A stretch of DNA of 30,629 nt from Acidimicrobiales bacterium (lineage in GTDB: Bacteria; Actinomycetota; Acidimicrobiia; Acidimicrobiales; UBA8592), in NCBI GenBank assembly GCA_051011515.1, contig JBPCTU010000127.1:1-30629 (forward strand). Reading direction: 5' to 3'. The translations under genes and the position numbers were made by a program. Positions 11,430-28,140 of this stretch are shown piece by piece. The notes beneath the pieces were generated by a model. The model ran no database searches and had not been told where the DNA came from. It saw nothing but the letters and a program-made list of their open reading frames with translations. Every line of letters starts with the position of its first letter. Position 1 is the stretch's first letter.

Positions 11430-14400
11430 ATGGCTCTGGATGGGTTCTCGGCGCCGGTGCGCGAGTGGTTCGAGACCACCTTCGACGCACCTACACCCGC
11501 CCAGGCCGAAGCCTGGCCGGCCATCGCTGGAGGCGCCAATACGCTCGTTCTCGCGCCCACGGGTTCGGGCAAGACGCTCGCCGCATTCTTGTGGGCCATT
11601 GACCGATTGGTGGCTTCCCCTCCTCCTGAGGACGATAAGCGCCGCACCAGGGTTCTCTACATTTCTCCGCTGCGGGCGTTGGCAGTCGACGTCGAGAAGA
11701 ACCTTCAATCGCCTCTTCGTGGAATCGAGCTCGCCGCCGAACGTCTGGGTGATCGGGTGCATCCGGTGCGAGTGGCGATGCGGACCGGTGACACGCCCGC
11801 CGACGAACGGCGGCGTTTGATACGGCACCCACCGGACGTGTTGATCACGACACCCGAGTCTTTGTACCTCATGCTCACGTCCAAGGCGCGAGAGACCCTG
11901 ACTTCGGTGGAGTACGTCATCATCGACGAGATTCACTCGATGGCCGCCACCAAACGTGGGGCCCACCTATCGGTCACGTTGGAACGGCTGGAAGAGTTGA
12001 TAGATGGATCCCCGCAACGGATCGGTCTGTCTGCCACCCAGCGTCCCCTCGATGAGATAGCGCGGTTTCTCGCCGGTTACGAGGGCGGCGCACAACGGCC
12101 AGTCACCGTCGTCGACAAGGGCTCAGCCAAGACGCTCGACATAGAGGTTGTTGTTCCCGTCGAAGACATGGGAGCCCTGGGCGAGGCCGAGCGAGATGAA
12201 ACGGCGGGACCGCAGCTGGCAGCGCCGGACCGCCGGTCAATCTGGCCGTCGATTCATCCACGGTTGTTGGATCTGATCAAGAGCCACAATTCGACACTCG
12301 TCTTCGTGAACTCTCGGAGGTTGGCGGAACGTTTGGCAACACGTCTCAACGAACTCGAGGCCGAGCAGCTCGAGGCCGCCCGGATCGAGGCGATGTCGCC
12401 TGATGAGCGGGCGGTCGTGCACGCTGAAGGAAACCTGGAGGTATCCGAATCGGTCGACCTGGTCCGCGCCCACCATGGCTCTCTGTCTCGAGTCAAACGG
12501 CTGGAGATCGAGGATCGCCTGAAGGGTGGAGACCTCCGCGGTCTTGTTTGCACGAGTTCACTGGAGCTTGGTATCGACATGGGTGCTGTCGACCTCGTCG
12601 TTCAGGTCGAATCACCTCGCTCTGTCTCCAGTGGAATGCAGAGGATCGGTCGAGCCGGTCATCAGGTCGGCGCAGCCTCGGTCGGGAAGATCTTCCCCAA
12701 ACACCGCAGCGACCTGGTCGAAGCCACGGTCGTCGCCAAACAGATGCAAGCCGGGAGGATCGAACAAACCCGCTATCCGAGGAACCCGCTCGATGTCCTG
12801 GCGCAACAAATCGTCGCGATGTGTGCCTTGGATGAATGGCAGGTGGATGATCTGAAATCCGTGGTCACCCGAAGCGCCAACTTTGCCGAGCTCTCTGACG
12901 AGGTATTCGACAACGTGCTCGATCTGCTTTCGGGCCGTTATCCATCCGAGGCCTTCTCCGAGCTGAGACCCCGTGTTGTATGGGATCGGATACAAGGTGT
13001 CGTTCGTGGTAGGGCTGGAGCCCAACGTCTGGCGGTTACCAGCGGGGGGACCATTCCCGACCGTGGACTGTTCGGCGTCTTCCTGCCCGATGGGACTCGC
13101 GTCGGAGAGCTCGACGAGGAGATGGTCTACGAGAGCCGGCCGGGTGAGACGTTCCTTCTGGGGGCCAGCACATGGCGTATTCAGGAGATCACATTCGAAC
13201 GTGTCATCGTCACGCCCGCCCCCGGCGAACCGGGGCGTATGCCCTTCTGGCATGGGGACGGGCCTGGTCGGCCATTCGAGCTCGGAGCGGCGGTCGGCGA
13301 GTTCCTCAGGACAACCCGTGGCTCTGGCGCGCTGGACGTCCTCGTCGACGAGCACGGCCTCGACCGACTCGCCGCTGAGAATGTCGTCACCTACCTCGAC
13401 GATCAGCTGGAAGCGACCGGAGTCATCCCAGATGACCGGACCATCGTCATCGAACGTTTCCCCGACGAGATCGGCGATTGGCGAATGTGTGTGCTCACAC
13501 CTTTCGGGGCACAGGTCCACGCGCCGTGGGCGATGGCGATCAGGAAGTCCCTGAACGCCGAGCTGGGGCGCGACGTCGAGATCATCTGGTCTGACGACGG
13601 CATCGTCGTTCGGCTTCCCGAGGCCGTAGATCATGTCGACCTCGACATGCTCTTGCCCGATCCCGATGCGATCGATGAGATGGTCGTTGACGAGCTTCCG
13701 AGCACTGCCATGTTCAGCGCGCGATTTCGAGAGTGCGCAGCACGGTCGCTGCTCCTGCCGCGGAGGCGGCCCGACCAGCGCACTCCTCTGTGGCAACAGA
13801 GGCAACGAGCCGCGGATCTACTCGCAGTAGCCGCTGAGTATCCGGACTTCCCAATCCTCCTGGAGACCACTCGCGAGTGCCTCAACGACGTATTTGATCT
13901 GCCGGGCCTTCGATCGCTGTTGAGCCAGGTCAAGCAGCGTTCGGTAAGGGTCGTGCAAGTCGACACACCGAGGGCGTCGCCGTTCGCTCAGTCGCTCCTG
14001 TTCAACTGGATCGCGGTGTACATGTACGAAGGCGACGCCCCGCTTGCCGAGCGTCGCGCCGCTGCCTTGGCGCTCGACCGCGATCTACTGCGCGATCTGC
14101 TCGGCGCCGAAGAGCTACGCGAACTGATCGACCCGGGAGTGTTGGCTGACCTGGAGATGGAGCTCCAGAAGCTCACGCCGGATCGTCCAGCTCGCGACGC
14201 CGATGAGCTCCACGACCTGCTTCGGACGCTCGGGCCGCTCAGTCCCCCTGGGCTCGAGGCGCGCTCCCGGGATGGAGCCGACATTGAAAGTTGGTCCGCT
14301 GACCTGGTCCGGCAGCGACGGGCCATCTGGGTGACGATTGCCGGCGAGAAAAGGCTGGCAGCAGCTGAAGACGCTGCCAGACTCCGAGATGCCTTGGGCG

Positions 14401-15926
14401 TCGCGCTGCCGCCCGGCCTCCCCGGAGCGTTCACCGAAGCCGTGGACGCACCAATCACGGACCTCGTGAGCCGGTATGCCCGCACGCATGGGCCATTTCT
14501 TGCCCGCGACGTCGCTTCGTGGATGGGGGTTCCAACTCAACGCGTCCAACCAGCGCTGGCGGAACTGCACGCGACCGGTGTCATCGCCAACGGCGAGTTC
14601 CGGCCCAACGGGTTCGAACGCGAATGGTGCCACGAAGATGTGCTCCGCCGGCTTCGTCGTCGCTCCCTCGCAGTGCTGCGTCACGAGGTCGAGCCGGTCG
14701 AACCCGAGGCCTATGCCAGGTTCCTGCCGGAATGGCAGGGGATCGGGCGACGACACGGTGGTGTGGATGCACTCGTCGAGGCGCTCGTCGTGCTCGACGG
14801 CGTGCCGTTGGTGGCATCCACACTCGAGACCGACGTTCTCCCAGTAAGGGTCAACGACTACAGATCGGGGCTCTTGGACGAGCTGTGCACCTCGGGCGAG
14901 TTGGTCTGGGTGGGATCCGGTGCTCTCGGAGCCCGGGACGGTCGGGTTCGGCTCCTCTTCCGAGATCACCTCTCCCTCCTGCCCGCGCCGAACGAAGAGT
15001 TGCCGGCGGATCCATTACACGAAGCGATTCTCGATCATCTACAAGAGGTTGGCGCTTCGTTCTGGCCGGAGATCCTTCTCGCGGTCACGAAGCAGTCCGG
15101 TTCCAGAGAAGAGAAGGCCACCCTCGAAGCGTTGTGGGATCTGGTTTGGGCCGGGGCGGTGACCAATGACTCGTTGGCCGCCTTGCGCTCCAGGGTTGGG
15201 TCCAACCGATCTCGGCCGAAGTCGGGTCGCAATAGACCACGGCCGGGTCAAGTCCGTCGTATCGGTCCGCCCGATGGGGCCGGTCGGTGGTCACTGGTGT
15301 CGAAGTTGACCGATGGGCCCATCGATGCCACCACGTTCACCCATTCAACGGCACTCCAATTGCTGGAGCGCCAAGGCATCGTCACCAGGGAAGGTGTGCT
15401 GGCCGAGGGCCACGTCGGAGGCTTCGCTGCCGTATACCCGGTTCTCAAGGCTCTCGAGGAGCAAGGCAAGGTCCGGCGCGGGTACTTCGTGGCTGGGCTC
15501 GGTGCCGCCCAGTTTGCGCTCGCCGGAGCCGTTGATCGCCTGCGAGACGGTCGCGAGGCGACTGGCGACAGCGCCGCCATCCTGCTTGCTGCAACCGACC
15601 CGGCTCAGCCCTTCGGCGCAGCCTTGGGCTGGCCCGATTCCAGAGGCCACCCGGCCCGCCAGGCTGGAGCGCACCTGTTGTTGGCTGACGGTATGCCATT
15701 GGTTTACATAGAACGTGGGGGTAAGTCGCTGGCCACGTTCGGCTCTTCGGCGGCCACATGGGCTCCTGCTTTGGCCGACGCCGTCGACGGTGGCGCCTTG
15801 GGTGACCTCGAGATCGGGTCCATCGATGGTGACCCGGTTGGCGAGGCACCGGGCCGCGATGAGCTCATCGCGGCGGGCTTCACGCGCGGCTACAAGGGCC
15901 TGGTACGCCGACGGAAGCGTCGCTGA
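11430..15926 (+). CDS. lhr: Long-form Lhr DEAH-box helicase with extended C-terminal winged-helix region
   Basis: APTGSGKT, ISPLRAL, TTPESL, DEIH, GLSATQRP, HHGS, SSLELGID, QRIGRAGH; 1498 aa, similar in length to actinobacterial Lhr. Confidence 0.95.
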   Translation: MALDGFSAPVREWFETTFDAPTPAQAEAWPAIAGGANTLVLAPTGSGKTLAAFLWAIDRLVASPPPEDDKRRTRVLYISPLRALAVDVEKNLQSPLRGIELAAERLGDRVHPVRVAMRTGDTPADERRRLIRHPPDVLITTPESLYLMLTSKARETLTSVEYVIIDEIHSMAATKRGAHLSVTLERLEELIDGSPQRIGLSATQRPLDEIARFLAGYEGGAQRPVTVVDKGSAKTLDIEVVVPVEDMGALGEAERDETAGPQLAAPDRRSIWPSIHPRLLDLIKSHNSTLVFVNSRRLAERLATRLNELEAEQLEAARIEAMSPDERAVVHAEGNLEVSESVDLVRAHHGSLSRVKRLEIEDRLKGGDLRGLVCTSSLELGIDMGAVDLVVQVESPRSVSSGMQRIGRAGHQVGAASVGKIFPKHRSDLVEATVVAKQMQAGRIEQTRYPRNPLDVLAQQIVAMCALDEWQVDDLKSVVTRSANFAELSDEVFDNVLDLLSGRYPSEAFSELRPRVVWDRIQGVVRGRAGAQRLAVTSGGTIPDRGLFGVFLPDGTRVGELDEEMVYESRPGETFLLGASTWRIQEITFERVIVTPAPGEPGRMPFWHGDGPGRPFELGAAVGEFLRTTRGSGALDVLVDEHGLDRLAAENVVTYLDDQLEATGVIPDDRTIVIERFPDEIGDWRMCVLTPFGAQVHAPWAMAIRKSLNAELGRDVEIIWSDDGIVVRLPEAVDHVDLDMLLPDPDAIDEMVVDELPSTAMFSARFRECAARSLLLPRRRPDQRTPLWQQRQRAADLLAVAAEYPDFPILLETTRECLNDVFDLPGLRSLLSQVKQRSVRVVQVDTPRASPFAQSLLFNWIAVYMYEGDAPLAERRAAALALDRDLLRDLLGAEELRELIDPGVLADLEMELQKLTPDRPARDADELHDLLRTLGPLSPPGLEARSRDGADIESWSADLVRQRRAIWVTIAGEKRLAAAEDAARLRDALGVALPPGLPGAFTEAVDAPITDLVSRYARTHGPFLARDVASWMGVPTQRVQPALAELHATGVIANGEFRPNGFEREWCHEDVLRRLRRRSLAVLRHEVEPVEPEAYARFLPEWQGIGRRHGGVDALVEALVVLDGVPLVASTLETDVLPVRVNDYRSGLLDELCTSGELVWVGSGALGARDGRVRLLFRDHLSLLPAPNEELPADPLHEAILDHLQEVGASFWPEILLAVTKQSGSREEKATLEALWDLVWAGAVTNDSLAALRSRVGSNRSRPKSGRNRPRPGQVRRIGPPDGAGRWSLVSKLTDGPIDATTFTHSTALQLLERQGIVTREGVLAEGHVGGFAAVYPVLKALEEQGKVRRGYFVAGLGAAQFALAGAVDRLRDGREATGDSAAILLAATDPAQPFGAALGWPDSRGHPARQAGAHLLLADGMPLVYIERGGKSLATFGSSAATWAPALADAVDGGALGDLEIGSIDGDPVGEAPGRDELIAAGFTRGYKGLVRRRKRR

Positions 15927-16325: not shown

Positions 16326-16523
16326 ATGAACACCGTGCTGAACGCATATGTCCGTATGACCACTGCTATTGCTGCTGTCCGTGAGGAAGAGCGTGGCGCC
16401 ACCGCTGTTGAATATGGCCTGATCGTTGCTTTGATCGCCGCCATCATCATCGGCATCGTTGCCACACTCGGCGAGAAGGTCAGCGACAACTTCCAGAAGG
16501 TCAGCGACAACCTCCCGTCCTGA
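16326..16523 (+). CDS. flp: Flp-family type IVb pilin 1
   Basis: EERG|ATAVEYGLIVALIA: Gly at -1, Glu at +5, Tyr at +6, then a hydrophobic helix; 65 aa. Confidence 0.95.
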   Translation: MNTVLNAYVRMTTAIAAVREEERGATAVEYGLIVALIAAIIIGIVATLGEKVSDNFQKVSDNLPS

Positions 16524-16555
16524 TTCCCAGGATCTGAGGTTGAGGAACTCGTGTG

Positions 16556-16587
16556 ACGGGTCGGGTCGCTCCGGCGGCCCGACCCGT
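16556..16587 (+). terminator. 14-bp hairpin between the two pilin genes
   Basis: ACGGGTCGGGTCGC-TCCG-GCGGCCCGACCCGT (one G-U pair); no U-tract. Confidence 0.55.
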
Positions 16588-16677
16588 GCGCGTGAGCCAG
16601 ATCTTCACTATCACCTCGACACGGGCCACTGCTCGTGTTGGAGAACCCTCCACAAGTTCTGCGGCGAGGGAGGCAGC

Positions 16678-16860
16678 ATGAACGAGTATCTTCGAAGCAC
16701 ACCCCAACTGCATGCGACCCGAGGCGCAACCGCCGTCGAGTACGCACTGATCATCGCCCTCATAGCGGCAGTGATCATCGTCGCAGTTGGCACTCTCGGA
16801 ACCAAGACCGAGGGGTTGTACAACAACACCAATACTGAGCTCACCAACCACGGAGCCTGA
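16678..16860 (+). CDS. flp: Flp-family type IVb pilin 2
   Basis: GGGAGG RBS before ATG 16678; TRG|ATAVEYALIIALIAAVII; 60 aa. The ORF-track start at 16459 is a spurious extension. Confidence 0.92.
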   Translation: MNEYLRSTPQLHATRGATAVEYALIIALIAAVIIVAVGTLGTKTEGLYNNTNTELTNHGA

Positions 16861-17094: not shown

Positions 17095-17925
17095 GTGCAA
17101 ATGAGACGACGCATCATCGCGCTGGTTGCAGCCCTGGTGCTTGCTGGAGTGGGTACGTTCGTGCTTGTTGGGTTCGTACGCGGTGCCGAGGACCGGGCTA
17201 CTGCCGGTCAAGAACTCGTCACCGTGTATGTGGTCAACACCGAGATTCCCCAAGGCACCGAAGGTGAAGCAGTAGGAGCGTTCGTTATTGCCGAAGAACG
17301 CCCTGCCAACACCCGGCCAGGCAATGCGATCACCGATACAACCACCTTGGACGGCCTGGTGGCCAACGCCGCCATCTTCCCTGGCGAGATTCTCCTCGAC
17401 AGCCGTTGGGTCCTCCCGACCGAGGCCGACCTGAGGCGGGACGATCTACCGACTCGCAGGGTCGAAGTCCCGTCTGGTCATCTGGAGATCCCGATTCGTT
17501 TTGCGACCGAGCAGGCTCTTGGGGGCATCATCGATGCCGGAGACATGGTCGCAGTGGTCGCTTCCTTCGACGCGTATGCGCCCGAGGGTGCCGACATCGT
17601 CGAAATCGATGGTGATCTGGTTGCGCTTCCAGAGTCAACCGAGGAAGAAGGGGCCCAGGAGGTCCAGGCAACCCACATCATCATTCACGATGCCCTTGTT
17701 GTCGAAGTCCAGGCCGAGAACAACCCGACCTTCGCGACCGACGACGGGGAAGCAGTACTGGCGCCCCAAACGAGCTTCATCATCACGTTTGCTCTGGAGC
17801 CGTCCGATGTCGAACGCATCGTCTTCGCTGCCAGCTACGGCAGGCTTTGGCTTGCCAGCCAGACGCCCGATGACACCGGCCCGACCAGCATCGTCACCAT
17901 CGACGACATCTTTCAAGGTTCCTGA
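17095..17925 (+). CDS. cpaB: Flp pilus assembly protein CpaB/RcpC
   Basis: N-terminal TM 'IIALVAALVLAGVGTFVLV'; SAF-like 'VYVVNTEIPQGT...LVANAAIFPGEIL'; 'GGIIDAGDMVAVV'; 'ITFALEPSDVERIVFA...LWL'. The start may be ATG 17101. Confidence 0.88.
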   Translation: MQMRRRIIALVAALVLAGVGTFVLVGFVRGAEDRATAGQELVTVYVVNTEIPQGTEGEAVGAFVIAEERPANTRPGNAITDTTTLDGLVANAAIFPGEILLDSRWVLPTEADLRRDDLPTRRVEVPSGHLEIPIRFATEQALGGIIDAGDMVAVVASFDAYAPEGADIVEIDGDLVALPESTEEEGAQEVQATHIIIHDALVVEVQAENNPTFATDDGEAVLAPQTSFIITFALEPSDVERIVFAASYGRLWLASQTPDDTGPTSIVTIDDIFQGS

Positions 17926-17931
17926 TCTGCG

Positions 17932-19116
17932 ATGATCCTGCTCCTCACGCCCGAAGAGAGCTTCGTCCCGTTCCTACAAGGACTCGTGGGCGACACCGTT
18001 GACATCTCGCGCCAGTGGGACGAGACATGGAAAGAGGCCCAGGCCATCGAGGTGGTTCGGGCTACCAGCTCGCCTGCGCCTGATGTCGTCATCATCGGGC
18101 CGAGTGTGCCCGAAGCCGTGGCTCTCGAATGGGCGGGTGCATTCGACAGAGAACACCCCGACGTTGGCACGCTGATCATTGCCCCGGCTACTCCCGATCT
18201 CCTGATGGGTGCCATGAGGCTTGGTGTCCGTGAGGTTGTTCCCCCGAATGCTTCCGGAGACCAGATTCGAGAAGCCGTTGAACGACTCTTGACCGCTGCC
18301 AGCCGTCTGAAGTCTTCACGCCCGGTCGGAGAAACTTTGGTCAGGAGCAACCGCGTCATCACGGTGCTCTCAGCCAAAGGCGGCAGCGGCAAGACCGTGG
18401 TCGCCACAAACCTTGCGCTCGGGCTCAACGACCACGCACCAGGTGAGGTCGTTCTGGTCGACCTCGACATCCAGTTCGGGGACTGCGGTTCCACGATGAA
18501 CCTGGAACCTGAGCAGACTCTGGCTGATGCCGCATTGAATGCGTCGGTCCTGGACGCCACGACACTCAAGGTGTTCCTCACACCTCACCCGTCGGGGCTG
18601 TTCCTCCTGGGTCCACCGCAGTCGCTCGTCGATGCCGCCGAGGTCACCGCCCAACAGATCAAATCGATCTTGGACCTGCTCGTCGGCATCTTCGAATATG
18701 TGGTCATCGACACCTCTTCGGGCATCGATGACCATGCCATCACGGCCATGGAATTCTCGACAGACCTGCTGCTGGTCAGTTCGTCAGAGGTGCCGAGTGT
18801 CCGGGCCATGCGCCGTCAGGTGGAGACGCTCGACACCATTGGCATGACCCGCCAGGACCGCCACTTTGTTGTGAACCGGGCCGGCACCCGAGTCGGCCTC
18901 CGCACCAGCGACATCGAACAGACCGTTGGTATGGAGGCATCGATCGAGATCCCGAGCTCGCGCCAAGTGGTCATCTCTACGAATCAGGGCCAGCCAATTG
19001 TGGTCTCGGCCCCGAAGGATCCAGCCGCAAGAGCGATGAAGGAAATGGTCGACATGTTCCGGCCCACGGATGCTGACGATGCCCCGAACAAGCGGGCTCG
19101 AAAGGGGAAGCGATGA
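17932..19116 (+). CDS. cpaE: CpaE/TadZ: pseudo-receiver domain plus MinD/ParA-type ATPase
   Basis: Deviant Walker A KGGSGKT, 'LVDLDIQFGD', 'YVVIDT'. The N-terminal receiver-like region 'PDVVIIG...LLMGAMRLGVREVV' appears to lack the phospho-acceptor Asp. Confidence 0.9.
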   Translation: MILLLTPEESFVPFLQGLVGDTVDISRQWDETWKEAQAIEVVRATSSPAPDVVIIGPSVPEAVALEWAGAFDREHPDVGTLIIAPATPDLLMGAMRLGVREVVPPNASGDQIREAVERLLTAASRLKSSRPVGETLVRSNRVITVLSAKGGSGKTVVATNLALGLNDHAPGEVVLVDLDIQFGDCGSTMNLEPEQTLADAALNASVLDATTLKVFLTPHPSGLFLLGPPQSLVDAAEVTAQQIKSILDLLVGIFEYVVIDTSSGIDDHAITAMEFSTDLLLVSSSEVPSVRAMRRQVETLDTIGMTRQDRHFVVNRAGTRVGLRTSDIEQTVGMEASIEIPSSRQVVISTNQGQPIVVSAPKDPAARAMKEMVDMFRPTDADDAPNKRARKGKR

Positions 19117-20525
19117 AGCTCGGCGCCATGCTCCGCCAAGCCGGAGAAGACGGAAACCTCCCGCCTCAAGAAATCGAGGAGGAGCCCGAGAGCCCAGAAC
19201 CCCTGGCCGAGGAGGAGTCGGTTCAGCGTGCGTTGGACCCACTCCAGATTCTCAAGACGAGGGCTCAGGAACAACTCTTCAGGCGCTTGGGATCTCGTTT
19301 GTACGACTCTTCGATGAGTCAGGACCAGCTGCAGGCGATGGTTGCTCAAGAGCTCGACGAGGCGATCAAGCAAGAGTCGATCCCGCTGAGTCAAACCGAA
19401 CGTCAGCGCTTGGTGACCGCCGTCAAGGACGACATCTTGGGTTATGGCCCGATGGAGCAGTTCCTGGCCGATGAAGCGGTTTCCGAAGTCATGGTCAACG
19501 GGGACGATGCCATCTACATAGAGCGTGCCGGCCGACTCGAGCTGACCGACGCGCGGTTCGTCTCCAACGACCATCTTCGGCGGGTCATAGAACGGATCGT
19601 CTCCAAGGTCGGTCGTCGTATCGATGAATCGTCTCCCATGTGTGATGCCCGCTTGCCCGATGGCTCCCGTGTGAACGCGATCATTCCGCCGCTCGCCGTC
19701 AGGGGCCCAGCACTCACCATTCGTAAATTCGCCAAGAAGAAGCTCGACGTCCAAGATCTGGTCGAGAAAGGCGCGTTCACCCAACAGACCGCGGACTTCC
19801 TGGAGGCCTGCGTACTGGGCCGACTTAACGTTCTGGTCTCCGGTGGTACTGGTACCGGTAAGACGACGATGCTCAACCTGTTGTCCGGATTCATCCCCGA
19901 CGACGAGCGAATCGTGACTATCGAGGACTCGGTCGAACTTCAGCTCCGCCAGCGCCACGTCGTCACGCTAGAAACCCGCCCGCCGAACGTCGAGGGCAAG
20001 GGTGCGGTCGAAATCCGCGACCTGGTCAAGAACTCGCTACGCATGCGGCCGGACCGCATCGTCGTCGGTGAGTGCCGTGGCGGCGAGACGCTGGACATGC
20101 TCCAGGCCATGAACACGGGCCACGAGGGTTCGCTCTCCACGGTTCACGCCAACAACGCTCGTGACACGCTGTCGCGTGTCGAGACGATGGTATTGATGGC
20201 CGGCATGGATCTCCCGGTCCGAGCAATTCGCGAGCAGATCGCATCCGCTGTCGACATGATCGTGCAGCTGTCCCGGCTGCGAGACGGTAGCCGCCGCGTG
20301 ACTCAGGTAACAGAGATCGTTGGTATGGAGGGCGAGCGGATCACCATGGCCGACCTCTTCAAGTTCGATTTCTCGGCCGGGTTCACTGCCGACGGGAAGT
20401 TCGCAGGTGGACTCCAGGCAACGGGTATTCGACCAATGTTCACCGAGCGGTTGCAGGATCACGGCATCGAGCTCCCTGCGGAGCTCTTCGCCGGACCGAA
20501 CCCCGCGCTGCCCAACCGGCGCTGA
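19113..20525 (+). CDS. cpaF: Tad pilus motor ATPase CpaF/TadA
   Basis: [84 protein letters not shown] overlap with cpaE. Confidence 0.97.
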
Positions 20526-20536
20526 CTCGAGCGCTC

Positions 20537-22636
20537 GTGACCGCCCGCCATACGCCACGACTGGTCGAAGGACTCTTCGCCACGCTCTTGGGCCTGCTGT
20601 TGCTGGCCCTGCTCGTGGCACCCGCGCGCGCTCAGGAGGAGGTCCCCGAACCAGTTGGCGACCCCGTGGTCGAGGATGAATTGGGACCCCCAGTTGGCGA
20701 TGAACCAGCCGATGAATCAGTCGAGAGCGAAACGTCGGGTCCGGTAATTCGTGAGATCGTCGACGACGGCGACCGGGCCGTCCAGATCCTGTCGGTCGAC
20801 GACACAGATCGGCCGCTGGTCGACGTGATTCTCGCGGTACCTCCGGTACTGGCCGGCGACCTCTCGGCGCGGTCGTTCGCCATGACGGAGAACGGTTCGC
20901 TCAGAGAGATCTCCGTTGCGAAGCTCCGCGACACCCTTGAGGTTGTCGTGGTCATCGACACATCGGGGAGCATGAGCGGCGAGCCAATCGACAACGCCAA
21001 AACTGCAGCCAAGAGCTTCGTAGACCAACTCGATGACGAGACCAGGGTCGCGGTGGTCGGGTTCGGCGCCACCGCCTCGGTGAGCGCAGACCTGGATTCC
21101 AGCCGGGCCGAGGTCGATGCCGCAATCGACGGGCTCCAGGCGGGTGGCGAAACAGCCCTCTATGACGGACTGGTGTTGGCCTCTTCGCAGTTCCAGGATC
21201 CTGAAGCCAGGCGATTCGTTGTTGTGCTCTCCGACGGCACCGACACAGTGAGCAGTTCAACGCTCGACGACACGTCTCAGGCGTTCATGACCCAGGAGAT
21301 CAGCCTCTACGCCATCACCCTTCAGAGCGAAGACGCCGATTTCAGCGGACTCCAAACGCTGGCGCGGGGTGTGAACGGTCAGGTGGTATCAGCCGCCGAC
21401 GCCGAGTCGCTCCGGGCGACGTACGCATCCGTTGCGAGCCGGCTCACCAATCAATACCTGCTTCGTTACCGGTCCGGGGTCGAGGGCGAAGCCCAGATCG
21501 TAATCTCGGTTGACTCGGCCGGCGTCCTCGCGATTGCCAAGGACACGGTGGACATCGGAGCTCCTGTCGGCGATCAGGCGACCGAGGATGGAACCGGCAC
21601 TGTTGGAGGTTCCTCTGCACGCGTCAACATCGACACGTCCAGCCCGCTGATCTCGGTGGTCCCGACCGACGACTCGTTGCTCAACTCCGAGAATGCGGTC
21701 TACATCGGTGCGGCCGGCATATTCGTCAGCCTCCTGGTGGCACTGGCAGTCGCGCTCACAGCTGAACCAGAAGGTCCGTCGGCCTTCGAGAGACTCAACT
21801 TCAAACCGAGCAAGGGCACGACCCCGAGGTCGGGCCTGGCCGCGATCGCCGATCGTGCGAGTGGTGTCGCCGACCGAATCCTCGAAAAGCAGCAGCGTCG
21901 CGGCGCGCTCGATGCCGCGCTTGAACAAGCCGGAATGGACATGCGTCCCGGCGAATACATCATGACCGCGGCTGGCGCAGCGCTTGCCATGGGGGCATTT
22001 GGCTTCGTGATGCAGGGCCCTCTGGGCGGACTTGTCATGTTCGGTGCCGGTGTCCTCGGCGGAAAGATGTTCGTCAATTTCAAGGCGAAGCAACGGCAAC
22101 GCGCCTTCGCAAACCAATTGGGGGACACCCTCCTAATGATCGCCGGGAGCATCCGCGCCGGCCACGGAGTCGTCGAAGCCATTGACACGGTCGCCGCCCA
22201 GGCCGAAGCCCCAACGGGTGAGGAGTTCACTCGAGCCGTAGCCGAAGCTCGGATCGGCCGCGACATGGTCGATTCTCTGTACGACATTGCCGAGCGCACC
22301 AACTCGGAGGACTTCATCTGGGTGGTGAGGGCCATCTCTATAAACCGCGAACTAGGCGGGGATCTGGCAGAGATCCTGGACAACGTCGGCGAGACGATCC
22401 GAGATCGCAATCGCCTCCGTGATCAGGTCAAGGCTCTGAGTGCCGAAGGAAAGGTCTCAGCCTTCATCTTGTTCGGTTTGCCGATCCTGGTGGCGATCTG
22501 GGTTCAAATCTCCAATCCGGAGTACATGGACGCGATGACTGGTGAAACCGCCGGGAAAGTCGTGTTCGGTTTTGCCGTGTTCGCACTGGTTGCCGGCGGG
22601 GTCTGGTTGAAGAAGCTCGTGAAGGTGGACTTCTAG
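20537..22636 (+). CDS. tadB: vWA domain-TadB fusion protein (T2SS-F family)
   Basis: Signal peptide (ARA|Q); vWA MIDAS DTSGSMS, GETALYD, LSDGTD; TM near residue 390; C-terminal TadB 'FANQLGDTL..IAGSIRAGH', 'INRELGGDLAEILDNV.ETIRDR..LR.QVKALSAEG'. Confidence 0.9.
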   Translation: MTARHTPRLVEGLFATLLGLLLLALLVAPARAQEEVPEPVGDPVVEDELGPPVGDEPADESVESETSGPVIREIVDDGDRAVQILSVDDTDRPLVDVILAVPPVLAGDLSARSFAMTENGSLREISVAKLRDTLEVVVVIDTSGSMSGEPIDNAKTAAKSFVDQLDDETRVAVVGFGATASVSADLDSSRAEVDAAIDGLQAGGETALYDGLVLASSQFQDPEARRFVVVLSDGTDTVSSSTLDDTSQAFMTQEISLYAITLQSEDADFSGLQTLARGVNGQVVSAADAESLRATYASVASRLTNQYLLRYRSGVEGEAQIVISVDSAGVLAIAKDTVDIGAPVGDQATEDGTGTVGGSSARVNIDTSSPLISVVPTDDSLLNSENAVYIGAAGIFVSLLVALAVALTAEPEGPSAFERLNFKPSKGTTPRSGLAAIADRASGVADRILEKQQRRGALDAALEQAGMDMRPGEYIMTAAGAALAMGAFGFVMQGPLGGLVMFGAGVLGGKMFVNFKAKQRQRAFANQLGDTLLMIAGSIRAGHGVVEAIDTVAAQAEAPTGEEFTRAVAEARIGRDMVDSLYDIAERTNSEDFIWVVRAISINRELGGDLAEILDNVGETIRDRNRLRDQVKALSAEGKVSAFILFGLPILVAIWVQISNPEYMDAMTGETAGKVVFGFAVFALVAGGVWLKKLVKVDF

Positions 22637-23547
22637 TGCCTGTAGAGATCTACCTTGCCTGTGCTGCGGTAGCTGTTGCCTTGCCTCTGATCGCCTACGC
22701 CGCGGGCGCCGGGGAGAGACTCGCCGAGGGCTCGTCAGGTATCAGCGCTGCCAAGCCGAATAGCGCCAATCTTCGAGATCTCCGTCTTCAGCAGCGTGCG
22801 AGTGACCGCGTGCTTGCACCGATGATGGACGTGGTCGCCGGGAAGGCCCGTCGTTTCACGCCGATGGGTGCTATTGACGCGATGGAGAAGAAGATCAACA
22901 TGGCCGGCGTCACGGCAACTTGGACGGTTGAAAGACTGCTGGCAACCAAGATGCTCCTCGGCGTGATCGGCACTGGCCTGGGAATCTTCATCCTTTCGCA
23001 GGGCGTGAGTCCCCGGAACCTCGTGACGGCGATCTTGCTCGCTGCCGGTGGGTACATAGCACCGGATATGAGCCTTGACCGCCGCGCCAAGGATCGGGCC
23101 AAGATGATCGAGAAGGAACTGCCCGACATCCTCGACCAGATGACGATTGGAGTTGAGGCCGGTCTTGGTTTCGATGCTGCCCTCGTTCGAGTCGCACAGG
23201 AGAACGAAGGGCCGGTTGCCGAGGAGTTCGGCCGCATGATGCAAGATCGCCAGTTGGGCATGTCGCGTGAAGACGCGTTTGGTCGTGTCGCCGCTCGCGC
23301 CGGTTCGCCCGATCTGAAAGGTTTCGTTCTAGCCCTGACCCAAGCCGACAAACACGGTATGCCACTCGCAACCGTGCTTCGGGTGCAGGCAGATGAGATG
23401 AGACAGAAGCGGCGCGTCAGAGCCGAGGAGAAGGCGCTGTCGCTGCCCGTGAAGATGGTGCTGCCACTCGTGGTCTGCATCCTGCCGGCCCTGTTCACCG
23501 TGATTCTCGGCCCAGCCGTATTCCGAATGCGAGGAGAAGGATTTTGA
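22636..23547 (+). CDS. tadC: Tad pilus inner-membrane platform protein TadC
   Basis: 'ELPDILDQMTIGVEAGLGFDAAL', 'QADKHGMPLATVLRVQADEMR.KRR.RAEEKA..LPVKMVLPLV.CILP'. 1-nt overlap with the tadB stop. Confidence 0.95.
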   Translation: MPVEIYLACAAVAVALPLIAYAAGAGERLAEGSSGISAAKPNSANLRDLRLQQRASDRVLAPMMDVVAGKARRFTPMGAIDAMEKKINMAGVTATWTVERLLATKMLLGVIGTGLGIFILSQGVSPRNLVTAILLAAGGYIAPDMSLDRRAKDRAKMIEKELPDILDQMTIGVEAGLGFDAALVRVAQENEGPVAEEFGRMMQDRQLGMSREDAFGRVAARAGSPDLKGFVLALTQADKHGMPLATVLRVQADEMRQKRRVRAEEKALSLPVKMVLPLVVCILPALFTVILGPAVFRMRGEGF

Positions 23548-24587
23548 GCACTCAAACTCAACCAGCGGCGGCTGGCAATGTGCCTGCCGACGCGATGGAG
23601 AACTTCGTCAGTCCGAAGCCTCGTACAGCTCGCGATGTGATGGCGGGCATAATCCATCGATCGACACCCGACCCTGGAATGGACCGGCGGCTGACCACTG
23701 GCTTCCACCCTCTCGACAGCGTCTTGGACGGGGGATTCTCTCCCCAGGACCTGGTCTTGTTGGGTGGCAAACCCGGTGTCGGGAAGACAATCGCCATGGT
23801 CCAATGGGCCCGCAACATGGCACAACAAGGGGCCCGTGTCGTATTCGCGAGCTACGAACTCAGCGAGCGCAACCTTCTCGGGCGGCTACTCAGCGCCGAG
23901 GTGTGTGCTCGACACAAAGACCTCGACAGCACGGCCAAACATCGGCTCAAGATGATCATCCTCGACAGCATCAAAGCGGGTGCGGTCGCCGAGGATCAAG
24001 ACGTCCGAGGTGTCATCCGCGAGGCGTATGACGCCATCGACGAGTACGCCGACCGCCTGCTCCTACAGCGGGTGTCCGGCTACCACACCGGTCCGAGTGA
24101 GCTCAACGATCTTGCTGCCGAGTGGGTTGGTCCCGGCGGGGCGCTTTTCGTCGACTATCTGCAGAAAGTGCCGGTCCGGGGAGCCAAGGACGACAGCGAG
24201 CGGGTCCTTACGGTCGCCGAGAGCCTCAAGGAGACGGCGATGACCCACGACGTGTGCGTCGTCGCCGCCGCGGCCGTGAATGCCGAGGGTTTGGGACAGC
24301 GGAGACTGCGGCTCGAACACATGCGGGGTAGTGCTCTCCTGGCTCATGAGGTCGACCTGGCCATCGCCATGAACGAGAAGAGCACCGCACTGTCGAAGAG
24401 TCACCTCGCCTACGACCCGCACCTGCTGGAGGCGTCGAAGAACCAGATCGTCTTCTCGATCGAGAAGAACCGAGAAGGTCCGGCGAACGTTCACCTCGAA
24501 TTCGACAAGGAGTTCGAGGACTACCGGTTCAATCCGGCGGGCGGATTCGTAGCCCAGCGGCTCACCGACGATACGTTCGAAGAGTAG
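23544..24587 (+). CDS. Stand-alone DnaB-like (RecA-fold) ATPase domain protein
   Basis: 'LTTGFHPLD', Walker A GGKPGVGKT, 'ASYEL', 'FVDYLQ', 'LEHMRGS', 'KNREGP'; only about 50 aa precede the motor domain. TTG start overlaps the tadC stop (TTGA), with GAGGAG upstream. Confidence 0.8.
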   Translation: MSTQTQPAAAGNVPADAMENFVSPKPRTARDVMAGIIHRSTPDPGMDRRLTTGFHPLDSVLDGGFSPQDLVLLGGKPGVGKTIAMVQWARNMAQQGARVVFASYELSERNLLGRLLSAEVCARHKDLDSTAKHRLKMIILDSIKAGAVAEDQDVRGVIREAYDAIDEYADRLLLQRVSGYHTGPSELNDLAAEWVGPGGALFVDYLQKVPVRGAKDDSERVLTVAESLKETAMTHDVCVVAAAAVNAEGLGQRRLRLEHMRGSALLAHEVDLAIAMNEKSTALSKSHLAYDPHLLEASKNQIVFSIEKNREGPANVHLEFDKEFEDYRFNPAGGFVAQRLTDDTFEE

Positions 24588-24612
24588 GAAACGAACAAGC
24601 TCACACAGATCT

Positions 24613-24650
24613 CGAGGGTGGGATCCCCGGGCGGGGTGATCCCACCCTCG
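24613..24650. terminator. Terminator hairpin between the convergent tad operon and ABC permease
   Basis: CGAGGGTGGGATC / GATCCCACCCTCG perfect 13-bp stem, followed on the + strand by GTCTGTTTTC. Confidence 0.75.
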
Positions 24651-24665
24651 GTCTGTTTTCGGGGC

Positions 24666-27377
24666 CTAACCGCCGTGGGCAATCGCATCGAGGACGTTGA
24701 GTTTGGCCGCGCGGCGAGCTGGGAAGTAGGCGGCCAACAATCCGGCAATCAACGCCGTCACCAGGTTCAATACGAGCGTGCCCCAGGGAATCGCCAGCTT
24801 CGAGACGAAGTCGTCGGGGATGATCTGAACACAGGCCACACCGAAGATCAGGCCCAGCCCGATCCCTAAGGTTCCACCGAACAGGGCAACGATGATGCCC
24901 TCGACCCTCACCGTTCGTTTCATCTGTTTTCGTGTCGCACCGACGGCGCGGGTCAGGCCGATTTCTCGGGTCCGCTCGAATACCGACAGCGCCAACGTTA
25001 TGGCGATTCCCAGGATGGCGAGAACAACCGATATCTGGAGCAGAACGATGACGATCGTCAACACCTGATTGATCGACTCCTCCTGGTCGTCGCGGAACTC
25101 GTCTTTGGTCTGCGCGTCGAGTTGGGGGAACTCGTCGGTGACGGTGGCGATTGCGGCTCGAGCATCCGCTTCGCTCACATCGTCGGCAGTGATCATCGTG
25201 ACGTAAAGGTCTTCTTGGGCCGGCAGCTCTTCGTTCTGTTCCCAGAATTGGGAGTCGAGCACCCAACCCGAATCGAAAATGGCCAGGTCGGAGTAGATGG
25301 CTGCCACCGTGAACTCTCGTTCGACCTGATCGACGAACTCGAGCGCGACAGTGGAACCAACGTTCAACTCGAGGTCATCTGCTCGGTCTTCGTGAACGAT
25401 GACACCGGTCTCGGTCATCAGTGACTCGTCTTTGTCGATGTAGTCGGGGGCGAAGTGGAGCTCGATGTCGACGAGGTTCGTCGAGTAGGACGTCCGAACG
25501 TCGTCGTCAACCACTGTGCGGAAGGCATCCTCGTTCCAGGTGACCGGGAGCACAGCTTCCAGTTCCTCGAGTTGCGCGAGATCTTCCCCGAGTTTCGGGC
25601 TGAACCCCGTCCCCGGTCCCTGGTTGTCGCCGATGACGATCCAGTCGGCGGTGACTGCTTCGTCGAGAACGTCGGCGAAGGTGGCTTTGAGCGAGGACAC
25701 TACAACTGCCACGGCGGTAACCAGCGCGAGTCCGATCATCAGCGCGGAGGCTGCCGTCGCGGTCCGTTCCGGGCTCCTTCCGGCGTTCTCTCGGGCCATG
25801 CGGCTCGGAACCCCGAGACGGGCGAAGGGGGCACCGATCGCTCGGGCCACCGGAGTCGCGAAGGACGGGCTGAGCAGGTTCATGCCCAGGAAAGCGATCA
25901 GGGCCGCTGCGCCGAGCAGGGCCAACAGGATCGACGCCCGAAAGTCGGCCACCAACGCGATGACGAGCAACACTGCGGCGAGCCCGACCATCGAAGCGCG
26001 CCCGATGCGTCGGTCGATCCGTGAAAGGCCCAGGTACAACAGGACACCGGCCACAACCGAGAGCAGCAGAAGAAAGAGCCACTGATCGATGAGGAACCCG
26101 AGGACGACCGCGAGAGCCGCGAAGAGGGTGAGTACCCCGCCGATGAGGGGTTGACGTTCGGTGCTCTGGTCGAAGGACACATCTGCCCGAAGCGCCGCCA
26201 TTGGTGACACCGACCTAGCCCTCAGTGCCGGCCAAATCGCAGCGACGAGTGTCAGGCCGACACCGAGCAGGATCGCAACTATGACTGTTGTCAATCGAAG
26301 CGGCGTAGAGCCGTCTTCGGGACCGAACTCGGCGGCGGCCAGCAGGGCTTGGATCGCGCCCGCAAGCGGGACGCCGATAGCCACGCCGACAACCGTTGCG
26401 AACACCCCGACGCCGAGGGCCTCCACGGCGATCGACCGCGTGATCTGGCGGCCAGTGGCTCCGAGGGCCCGAAGTAGACCGATCTCCTGGATGCGCTGGC
26501 CGACGATGATCGAGAACACGTTGTAGATGATGAATGCCGCGACCAACAAGATGATGAAGGCGAAGACCAACAGGATCGTGCGGAAGATGTCGATGAACTC
26601 GTTGAACGTGTCGGCTTGTTCGTCGACGAGCACCTCACGAGGGATGACTTCGAGGCCGTCGGGAACCACCTCTGATGCCGCCGCGATGACGGCGGCTTCG
26701 TCAGCGCCTGCTTCGAGCGTGATCGTGACGTCGTCGTAGCCCCGGCCGCTGTTCAGCAGGTCAACTGCGGTCGCAGTCTCGAAAGCGACGAGTTTGGCCC
26801 CGACCAGCGCATTCTCTTCGGGATCGGCGAATGTGAACGTTCCTACCAGTTGCAGGTTCACCAACCCCTCTGGGGTTTGCACGTCGTATCGCTCGCCTAC
26901 CTGGAATTCATCGTCCTCGGCCGCGTCGATGTCGATCATGAACTCATCGCTGGATGTTGCGGGACGCCCCTCGGCACTGAACAGGCGAACGTCGGTGCCC
27001 TGATCCTCCCAGTTGACGCCGATGTTGGGTCCCTGCGATGTCGCGGCGTCGCCGTCAGCGGTGTTGGGAACAATGCCGAACTCGATGACTCGGGGCTGCA
27101 CCGCGGCTACACCGTCGAGGTCCTCCAGCAGCGGGGGGACTTCGAGGCCAACAGGGGCAGCGTTCAGTCGATCGCCGAACGGAACCTCGCTACGCACCGC
27201 GATGTCGTAGCCAGACTCGATATCGCCGCTGAGATCGCCGAATGTCTCGCGAAGACTGTCGGTCAGTACGAATACCGCCGTGGTCAATGCGACGCCGATC
27301 AATACGGCCAACGACGTCAGAATGAACCTGCCCGGGCGGGACGTGATGTTCTTGAGAGCGAGTTTGACGAGGGTCAT
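24666..27377 (-). CDS. MacB/FtsX-type ABC transporter permease with two permease modules
   Basis: 'ALKNITSRPGRFILTSLAVLIGV'; 'QRIQEIGLLRALGAT'; second module 'ERTATAASALMIG' and 'ERTREIGLTRAVGAT'. Start moved to ATG 27377, 7 nt after the ATPase stop. Confidence 0.92.
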   Translation of the reverse strand: MTLVKLALKNITSRPGRFILTSLAVLIGVALTTAVFVLTDSLRETFGDLSGDIESGYDIAVRSEVPFGDRLNAAPVGLEVPPLLEDLDGVAAVQPRVIEFGIVPNTADGDAATSQGPNIGVNWEDQGTDVRLFSAEGRPATSSDEFMIDIDAAEDDEFQVGERYDVQTPEGLVNLQLVGTFTFADPEENALVGAKLVAFETATAVDLLNSGRGYDDVTITLEAGADEAAVIAAASEVVPDGLEVIPREVLVDEQADTFNEFIDIFRTILLVFAFIILLVAAFIIYNVFSIIVGQRIQEIGLLRALGATGRQITRSIAVEALGVGVFATVVGVAIGVPLAGAIQALLAAAEFGPEDGSTPLRLTTVIVAILLGVGLTLVAAIWPALRARSVSPMAALRADVSFDQSTERQPLIGGVLTLFAALAVVLGFLIDQWLFLLLLSVVAGVLLYLGLSRIDRRIGRASMVGLAAVLLVIALVADFRASILLALLGAAALIAFLGMNLLSPSFATPVARAIGAPFARLGVPSRMARENAGRSPERTATAASALMIGLALVTAVAVVVSSLKATFADVLDEAVTADWIVIGDNQGPGTGFSPKLGEDLAQLEELEAVLPVTWNEDAFRTVVDDDVRTSYSTNLVDIELHFAPDYIDKDESLMTETGVIVHEDRADDLELNVGSTVALEFVDQVEREFTVAAIYSDLAIFDSGWVLDSQFWEQNEELPAQEDLYVTMITADDVSEADARAAIATVTDEFPQLDAQTKDEFRDDQEESINQVLTIVIVLLQISVVLAILGIAITLALSVFERTREIGLTRAVGATRKQMKRTVRVEGIIVALFGGTLGIGLGLIFGVACVQIIPDDFVSKLAIPWGTLVLNLVTALIAGLLAAYFPARRAAKLNVLDAIAHGG

Positions 27378-27384
27378 GTCTTGC

Positions 27385-28140
27385 TCAATCGCCAAGCGTC
27401 TTCAGATAGTCGAACACCGAGTCCGCACTCGGGTCGGCCATCTCGCCCGTTACCTTGCCGTCGGCCAGGAAGACCACGCGGTCCGCGTAACCGGCAGCCA
27501 CTGGGTCGTGGGTCACCATCACGATGGTCTGGCCGAGTTCGGTTACTGCCTCGCGCATGAACTCTAGGATTTCGGCGCCGGTCCGGGAATCGAGGTTGCC
27601 CGTCGGTTCGTCGGCGAAGATGATCTCGGGTCGGCTGGCGAGCGCTCGGGCAACGGCAACACGTTGTTGTTGCCCGCCGGACAGTTCGTTGGGCCGGTGC
27701 TTCAACCGATCGTCCAATCCGACGGTGGCGACCACATGATCCAACCAATCTTGGTCAGCCGTGCGCCCTGCCAATGCCATCGGCAACGTGATGTTCTCGA
27801 TGGCCGACAGCGTGGGGATGAGGTTGAATGCCTGGAAGATGAAACCCACCCGTTCGCGGCGGAGGAGTGTGAGCTCACGTTCGGACAACTTCGTGAGGTC
27901 GACATCGCCGATCCACACGTTGCCGGACGTAAGCCCGTCGAGGCCGGCCATGCAGTGCATCAACGTCGACTTGCCCGAACCCGAAGGGCCCATGATTGCT
28001 GAGAACTGAGCCGTGACGAAGTTCACGTCGACACCGTCGAGCGCTCGGACCTCGGTGTCTCCGGACCCGTAGATCTTGCTGGCGCCCTCTGCCCGTGCTG
28101 CAAGAGCCGTCACAGGGGGAGCCGGGGGTGTGCTCGTCAT
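27385..28140 (-). CDS. ABC transporter ATP-binding protein (LolD/MacB-type)
   Basis: GPSGSGKST, Q-loop GFIFQAFNL, LSGGQQQRVAVARAL, IIFADEPTGNLD, VTHD; GAGAGG upstream. Confidence 0.96.
   Translation of the reverse strand: MTSTPPAPPVTALAARAEGASKIYGSGDTEVRALDGVDVNFVTAQFSAIMGPSGSGKSTLMHCMAGLDGLTSGNVWIGDVDLTKLSERELTLLRRERVGFIFQAFNLIPTLSAIENITLPMALAGRTADQDWLDHVVATVGLDDRLKHRPNELSGGQQQRVAVARALASRPEIIFADEPTGNLDSRTGAEILEFMREAVTELGQTIVMVTHDPVAAGYADRVVFLADGKVTGEMADPSADSVFDYLKTLGD

Follow-up and report, generated by a model that had tools for sequence, protein, structure and literature searches.

A DnaB-derived ATPase as a probable accessory of a Tad/Flp pilus subtype in Actinomycetota

Background

Descriptions of bacterial Tad pili name a single motor ATPase, CpaF, and beside it the ParA-like CpaE/TadZ. 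The contig analysed here (JBPCTU010000127.1, from an Acidimicrobiales bacterium; 30,629 nt, hereafter "the window", whose forward-strand positions serve as coordinates throughout) carries a Tad operon whose last gene, ORF 23544-24587 (+), encodes a protein related to the replicative helicase DnaB. Why is a DnaB-like ATPase encoded at the end of a pilus operon, and does it belong to the pilus machine? The original prediction, made from the sequence of the window alone, had read the gene as a third ATPase of a Tad variant, acting either as a regulator similar to the archaellum protein ArlH or as a DNA translocase.

We propose that the gene probably encodes a genuine accessory ATPase of DnaB descent in a Tad subtype, third beside the known Tad ATPases and previously undescribed; full-text literature searches returned no description of a DnaB-like gene in Tad/Flp loci. 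The account that we moderately favour is that of a cytoplasmic, ATP-hydrolysing and probably ring-forming protein of DnaB descent, serving as an optional accessory of a Tad/Flp subtype in monoderm Actinomycetota.

Association of the DnaB-like gene with Tad loci

Relatives of the protein were collected in two ways. A word-indexed protein search returned 473 of them, about 320-360 aa long, those with annotation being named as metagenome-assembled genomes of Acidimicrobiia or Actinomycetota; 1.84 billion cluster representatives were also searched with a profile, which returned 272 clusters at E <= 1e-30. Genomic context was counted in the best 80 of 386 genome loci, and these 80 are all from metagenome-assembled genomes. 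The tadC gene lies directly upstream on the same strand in 62 of these 80 loci (hereafter tail loci); the DnaB-like gene is transcribed divergently from the tad operon in seven, no tad gene is found within up to 10 kb in four, and seven are too short for judgement. The gene is accordingly Tad-linked in 69 of the 73 informative loci. A separate sample of 301 genomes, drawn evenly and independently from the class, gave 18 matches beyond the window's own genome; for 16 of them, a tadB match on the same strand is about 1-2 kb away. These counts bear out the original prediction, which had the gene belonging with the tad genes as a third ATPase and proposed a neighbourhood survey for an enrichment of its homologues next to them.

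Three relatives (44-50% identity) are encoded at the end of an operon of the order flp-tadE-tadG-like-cpaB-cpaE-cpaF-VWA/tadB-tadC-DnaB-like gene, and the genes that follow in the three genomes are mutually unrelated. Closed genomes and further contigs revealed four arrangements of the gene: after tadC, divergent from flp, co-directional before flp-flp-tadV, and convergent with tadC. Adjacency to tad genes persists down to about 32-35% identity. Its persistence through rearrangements and to such divergence argues for a functional tie, as far as comparative gene order can tell, rather than for inherited gene order. Across a sample of the phylum, 41 of 401 genomes carry the family, concentrated in a few taxonomic families, and many of them have the divergent "head" arrangement beside flp.

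In the window, the TTG start of the gene overlaps the TGA stop of tadC (22636-23547) in the tetranucleotide TTGA (23544-23547), and a GGAG ribosome-binding site stands at 23533-23536, 7 nt before the start. A hairpin (24605-24656) followed by UUUU, the whole feature spanning 24605-24660, lies between the gene and the convergent gene of an FtsX-type permease; the folded stretch reaches -43.4 kcal/mol (z -4.5, equalled by 0 of 200 shuffles) and is probably a terminator shared by the two convergent genes. No sigma-70-like site was found directly upstream of the DnaB-like gene in a promoter scan, which is no evidence on the matter as actinobacterial promoter types fall outside the scan. The tight junction with tadC is not due to chance, since 52 of the 62 tail loci have a possible start codon between -8 and +20 nt from the tadC stop, 24 of them with a 4-nt or 1-nt overlap. 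The overlap, ribosome-binding site and probable terminator were thus all correctly anticipated. The more general description of the gene as the last of its operon, coupled to tadC, holds for the window but not for every locus, given the head, co-directional and convergent arrangements found elsewhere.

The host genome was assembled from a metagenome in 651 contigs and is 79% complete; it contains a second Tad locus on contig C14 (L010:2368-6256), in which VWA-tadB and tadC are followed by a 44%-identical copy of the DnaB-like gene before the contig edge ends the locus. A third VWA-tadB is found on contig C531 of the same genome.

A DnaB motor domain without the N-terminal domain

The 347 open codons of the gene encode a protein matched by Pfam DnaB_C (2.8e-23, 83 bits) over profile positions 2-253 of 255. 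Pfam KaiC reaches 38 bits and covers residues 51-168 only, that is, the P-loop part. The top NCBIfam matches are all DnaB models, far under their equivalog cut-offs (70.2 bits for TIGR00665, cut-off 385), and the RadA model TIGR00416 matches residues 48-111 only, with 36.9 bits for a cut-off of 403. Among phage families, PHROG 19 ("DnaB-like replicative helicase") is matched at 2.9e-42.

An AlphaFold2 model was computed from a 25-sequence alignment (mean pLDDT 84.9), and the first 50 Foldseek matches of this model are all DnaB-family chains. Structural re-alignment ranks G40P and the bacterial DnaB proteins first (Z 29.4-27.4), followed by T4 gp41 (25.0), T7 gp4 (24.8), RadA (23.6) and KaiC (21.0). 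The DnaB N-terminal, primase-binding domain (PF00772) has no Pfam match in the protein, as the original prediction had stated, and residues 1-24 are modelled as disordered. The structural alignments start at model residues 22-25, facing the DnaB linker helix, so the protein consists of the linker helix and the RecA-type domain without the N-terminal domain. By its profile matches and its predicted fold, it is a descendant of the DnaB family and not of KaiC/ArlH.

Compared with DnaB itself (G40P 3bh0, G. stearothermophilus DnaB 4esv and E. coli DnaB), the protein shares the fold (Z 27-29; about 270 residues, among them the linker helix), together with Walker A, the catalytic Glu of H1a, the DYLQ of H2, most of H4 and the K-x-R finger. 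It differs by the missing primase-binding domain, the replacement of the H3 Gln by Ala, an insertion of about 25 residues, a C-terminal extension and its position in a pilus locus. RadA/Sms is likewise a DnaB-like RecA-fold ATPase, but the window protein has neither a zinc-finger nor a Lon-like domain by Pfam and scores far below the curated RadA cut-off.

The protein has no hydrophobic segment and is therefore predicted to be cytoplasmic. A separate, bona fide DnaB (465 aa, 363.8 bits) is encoded on contig C474 of the same genome, so the DnaB-like gene is a paralogue and, judged by this gene content, its product is not the replicative helicase of the cell. A search of AlphaFold DB clusters for a named or cultured relative gave generic SF4 helicases only. 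A role in a defence system was considered and rejected, the sole PADLOC match being a weak one to mad8 (about 22-27 bits).

Conserved active site and purifying selection

The motifs GKPGVGKT (Walker A), SYELSE, VDYLQK and EKNREGP are present in the protein, and AAAAVN stands where SQLSR is expected. Residue statistics were drawn from 71 Tad-linked relatives. In all 71, the Walker A residues K81 and T82, the catalytic Glu E105 and the Walker B residue D204 are invariant, as are R254, E269, D271, K308, R310 and G312, among which K308 and R310 form the Lys/Arg finger. The Walker A, catalytic Glu, Walker B and K-x-R finger reported in the original prediction are therefore present and kept throughout this set. 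The loss of the H3 Gln, which it had also noticed, extends to the whole set as well: the Gln position of SQLxR is occupied by Ala in 64 sequences, Ser in five, Thr in one and Pro in one, and by Gln in none, while the genome's own DnaB carries Q there.

Two further features characterise the family. About 25 extra residues are inserted between H1a and H2, and the C-terminus is prolonged by a conserved stretch (F320, F324, R328, P331, G333, L340) that is absent from DnaB. Pairwise dN/dS values range from 0.03 to 0.31, and reading frames are intact in nearly all matches, with an in-frame stop in one or two only. By these measures, the gene is functional, under purifying selection and endowed with an intact hydrolytic site.

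An optional gene with relatives outside Tad loci

Several observations weigh against a dedicated pilus function and have to be set against the linkage described above. First, the gene is far rarer than the pilus: it occurs in 17 of the 301 class genomes versus 133 of 301 for tadB, mostly as the VWA-tadB fusion, and it is missing from each of the 23 control Tad loci, some of which are second loci of carrier genomes. These control loci all have cpaE-cpaF-tadB-tadC, and most also have a detectable cpaB. Carriers and non-carriers are interleaved on the CpaF tree, whose strongly supported branches require at least four gains or losses; the head loci form a single clade. As the gene is missing from most Tad loci and has been repeatedly gained or lost, it is not a core part; on this comparative evidence, the DnaB-like ATPase is an optional accessory and not a core Tad component.

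Second, four relatives within the Tad-linked group (L071, L075, L083 and L087) form a clade that has moved off tad and remains under purifying selection; their genes stand behind a gene for a TrmA-like methyltransferase, and the surrounding sequence, up to 10 kb, is free of tad genes. Third, relatives outside Tad loci likewise lack the Gln and have the insertion and the tail at the C-terminus. These include two of four representatives with N-terminal extensions that cluster with the head clade (SH-aLRT 95-96): P0179 (L099:2231-3706) and P0195 (L101:9001-10560), which carry the DnaB N-terminal domain (PF00772, 1.3e-14 and 8.2e-6, respectively) and are both encoded in housekeeping contexts. The three N-terminally extended representatives whose contigs were looked up are all in non-Tad contexts. 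Since the family features are present outside Tad loci, they are not pilus adaptations, and the family has its origin within the DnaB-like helicases. Fourth, the DnaB H4 motif "RESG" is mostly retained (R254 in 71/71, R261 in 64/71 and S263 in 59/71), so a nucleic-acid substrate is possible. Finally, the contact of the ATPase with Tad proteins is itself putative. The original interpretation thus stands as to a third ATPase in a Tad variant, and has to be amended in that the features of the protein are not specific to Tad and the gene is optional.

Distant members (188-224 bits to the family profile) also lie outside Tad loci, one of them adjoining a ParM-like gene. When the family tree was rooted with one DnaB outgroup, the outgroup branch (6.9) was too long to resolve the base. 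Non-Tad members adjoin RNA-modification or repair genes three times (TrmA-like methyltransferase, Trm1 and LigT), in what is a very small sample; the loci concerned are L083:8649-11035, L071:8876-11008, and also L099 and L102.

In the non-carriers nested among carriers, tadC is followed by unrelated genes (fatty-acid hydroxylase, tadV, sigma factors, Xer-type recombinase). A sister Tad lineage without the DnaB-like gene has a conserved polytopic membrane protein of 448-512 aa encoded at -4 to +16 nt from tadC, for example at L112:4411-5778 (-), L113:9554-11092 (+) and L131:9555-10904 (+), and further in L142-L144, L146 and L148-L150. This protein has no Pfam match, and the identity between two members is 29%. 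Its gene seems to be another kind of tail gene of Tad operons, specific to that lineage.

Proposed role and alternatives

A ring-shaped, ATP-hydrolysing oligomer would be the likeliest form of the protein, because both the linker helix that holds the DnaB ring together and the trans-acting K-x-R finger are retained. In RecA-type motors, the H3 residue is the gamma-phosphate sensor and provides the coupling to the DNA-binding loop (RecA Q194, T7 gp4 H465). Replacement of the H3 Gln throughout the family, mostly with Ala, suggests an altered or lost capacity for DNA translocation of the DnaB type, and a switch or regulator would for this reason fit better than a processive helicase. We therefore favour, as a working model, a DnaB-derived ATPase that may be an auxiliary ring or a nucleotide-dependent regulator of the Tad motor, acting on it or together with it (CpaF with TadB/TadC, or CpaE), in a role resembling that of ArlH beside ArlI in the archaellum though of different descent. 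One could speculate that a ring docked on one face of CpaF biases extension versus retraction; a preprint proposes that the CpaF ring inverts on the platform to switch between the two (10.64898/2026.02.24.707734). A predicted complex of CpaF with the DnaB-like protein scored 0.00 and is counted neither for nor against a contact.

ArlH/FlaH is the nearest analogy in role. It is likewise a small single-domain protein of the RecA superfamily, and its gene adjoins those of the motor ATPase and the platform in a type IV filament machine (PMC12488501). The window protein shares the position beside such motor and platform genes (69/73 loci), but KaiC is not its best match, and it differs by its DnaB descent, its full hydrolytic site with Arg finger, and its optional rather than core status. 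Archaeal type IV filament loci of subsystem 4B also carry an extra RecA-like ATPase, or KaiB (PMC13705601); these are archaeal and KaiC-related, and the likeness is one of description only.

The main rival to a regulator is a DNA motor, in which a DnaB-type hexamer would translocate or unwind DNA together with the Tad machine, for pilus-dependent uptake or export. The DnaB-type fold with its linker helix, the intact ATPase site with its Arg finger and the largely retained H4 are all compatible with such an activity. Flp/Tad pili are reported to be required for transformation in Micrococcus luteus (PMC4322843), and one structural neighbour is RadA (Z 23.6), a helicase of the DnaB type that serves in transformation. 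ComEC is encoded in the five carrier genomes checked (5/5), yet it is common and does not discriminate. However, the Gln that would couple the nucleotide state to DNA binding is missing in 71 of 71 sequences, and none of comEA, comEC, dprA and relaxase genes is recurrent in the loci. The gene for an Lhr helicase upstream of the window operon is clade-specific (5/80 loci, all of the window's own clade), the DnaB-like protein has no membrane anchor, and most Tad loci of the class work without the gene. On this balance we consider a DNA motor unlikely, and its narrower version, a DnaB-derived ring working as a nucleic-acid motor docked to the Tad platform, a little more doubtful still.

The protein could also be a DnaB paralogue with a nucleic-acid or replication-related role of its own, outside the pilus and merely co-regulated with tad, for instance linking attachment to replication or to RNA/DNA metabolism. 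The relatives with the same special features outside Tad loci speak for it, two of them with the DnaB N-terminal domain in housekeeping contexts, as do the clade behind the TrmA-like methyltransferase gene, the members beside Trm1, LigT or a ParM-like gene, and the separate transcription unit of the gene in head arrangements. But adjacency to tad through four arrangements and to about 32-35% identity is hard to explain without a functional tie, and a true DnaB is also present in the genome. We judge this explanation improbable, if worth keeping in mind.

That the protein is a true homologue of archaeal ArlH/KaiC, passed down when the Tad system arose from its archaeal ancestor, is strongly disfavoured. 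Tad pili are considered descendants of an archaeal pilus (PMC6668835), and Pfam KaiC does match the P-loop part. Nevertheless, every search scores DnaB models above KaiC models, the DnaB-type linker helix, the DYLQ of H2, H4 and the K-x-R finger are present, close relatives have the DnaB N-terminal domain, and the distribution is narrow and patchy within Actinomycetota. Least credible of all is a decaying or hitch-hiking copy without function: the gene is indeed optional and repeatedly lost, but the low dN/dS, the invariant catalytic residues and the nearly always intact frames contradict it.

If the accessory ATPase that we favour is real, this type IV filament machine would have a new accessory component: a third ATPase, derived from DnaB, conserved and catalytically intact. 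The protein would form an independent parallel to ArlH of the archaellum, in which the motor domain of a replication helicase has been recruited to a surface appendage. We know of no other type IV filament system that uses a helicase-type motor. Should the protein handle DNA, it would connect Tad pili directly, at the level of mechanism, with the uptake or transfer of DNA in Actinomycetota, and, if it is a DNA motor, a pilus-coupled machine for DNA uptake or export in these monoderm bacteria. Natural contrasts enable comparison: sister Tad loci with and without the gene, sometimes in one genome, head and tail arrangements, and relatives off Tad loci.

Gene organisation of the window

The genes of the Tad operon follow one another on the forward strand. 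Two flp pilin genes come first. The first (16326-16523) encodes 65 aa with the processing motif G/ATAVEY, the same Flp motif as in the product of the next gene by ORF translation. The second (16678-16860) encodes about 60 aa (MNEYL...RGATAVEYALI); its start is inferred as an internal ATG of ORF 16459-16860, and Pfam Flp_Fap matches residues 88-116 of this long ORF at 3.7e-10. The cpaB/rcpC-like gene (17095-17925) is identified by Pfam RcpC (2e-11); its product has one N-terminal hydrophobic segment and reaches 62.2 bits (4.5e-17) with TIGR03177 pilus_cpaB, under the 71-bit cut-off. Next come the gene for a cpaE/tadZ-like ATPase of the ParA/MinD type (17932-19116; Pfam ParA 1.1e-14, AAA_31 and CbiA) and the cpaF/tadA motor ATPase gene (19113-20525; Pfam T2SSE 1.8e-69). 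The CpaF product scores 349.5 bits with TIGR03819 ("TadA family conjugal transfer-associated ATPase"), slightly below its 373-bit cut-off. The 699-aa VWA-tadB fusion (20537-22636; Pfam VWA 2.7e-19 and T2SSF 4.8e-18) and the gene of the platform protein TadC (coordinates above; Pfam T2SSF 1.5e-22) precede the DnaB-like gene. Beyond the hairpin, the FtsX-type permease gene (Pfam FtsX) occupies 24666-27395 on the minus strand.

The window locus thus has the Flp pilin with its G/xxxxEY motif, CpaF/TadA, TadB, TadC and CpaE/TadZ of a Tad system. Like the Tad/Flp type IVc systems described in Caulobacter (Cpa), Aggregatibacter (Tad) and actinobacteria (Flp), it has flp, cpaB, cpaE/tadZ, cpaF/tadA, tadB and tadC in the usual order; it differs by the extra DnaB-derived ATPase, by the VWA domain on tadB, and by the absence of tadE/F and tadV from the operon. 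The prepilin peptidase and TadE functions are found elsewhere in the genome: contig C5 has Peptidase_A24, and four contigs have TadE.

The VWA-tadB product is ordered as a Sec signal peptide, the VWA domain, a transmembrane (TM) helix and T2SSF, as read from its signal-peptide-like N-terminus and its TM segments. The VWA domain of the window TadB, which sits on the platform protein, is thereby placed outside the cytoplasm. VWA-TadB fusions are common across the class, independently of the DnaB-like gene. We had considered that this VWA domain binds the acidic C-terminal tail of the ATPase via its metal-ion-dependent adhesion site (MIDAS), and rejected the idea because the domain, after the Sec-type signal peptide and before the TM helix, lies outside the cytoplasm; that such fusions are common in Tad loci without the ATPase also disfavours this docking. 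The Lhr helicase was likewise set aside as a partner, its upstream synteny being limited to the clade of the window. Its gene (11430-15926, +) lies directly 5' of flp and encodes 1498 aa with an AlkZ-like C-terminal part.

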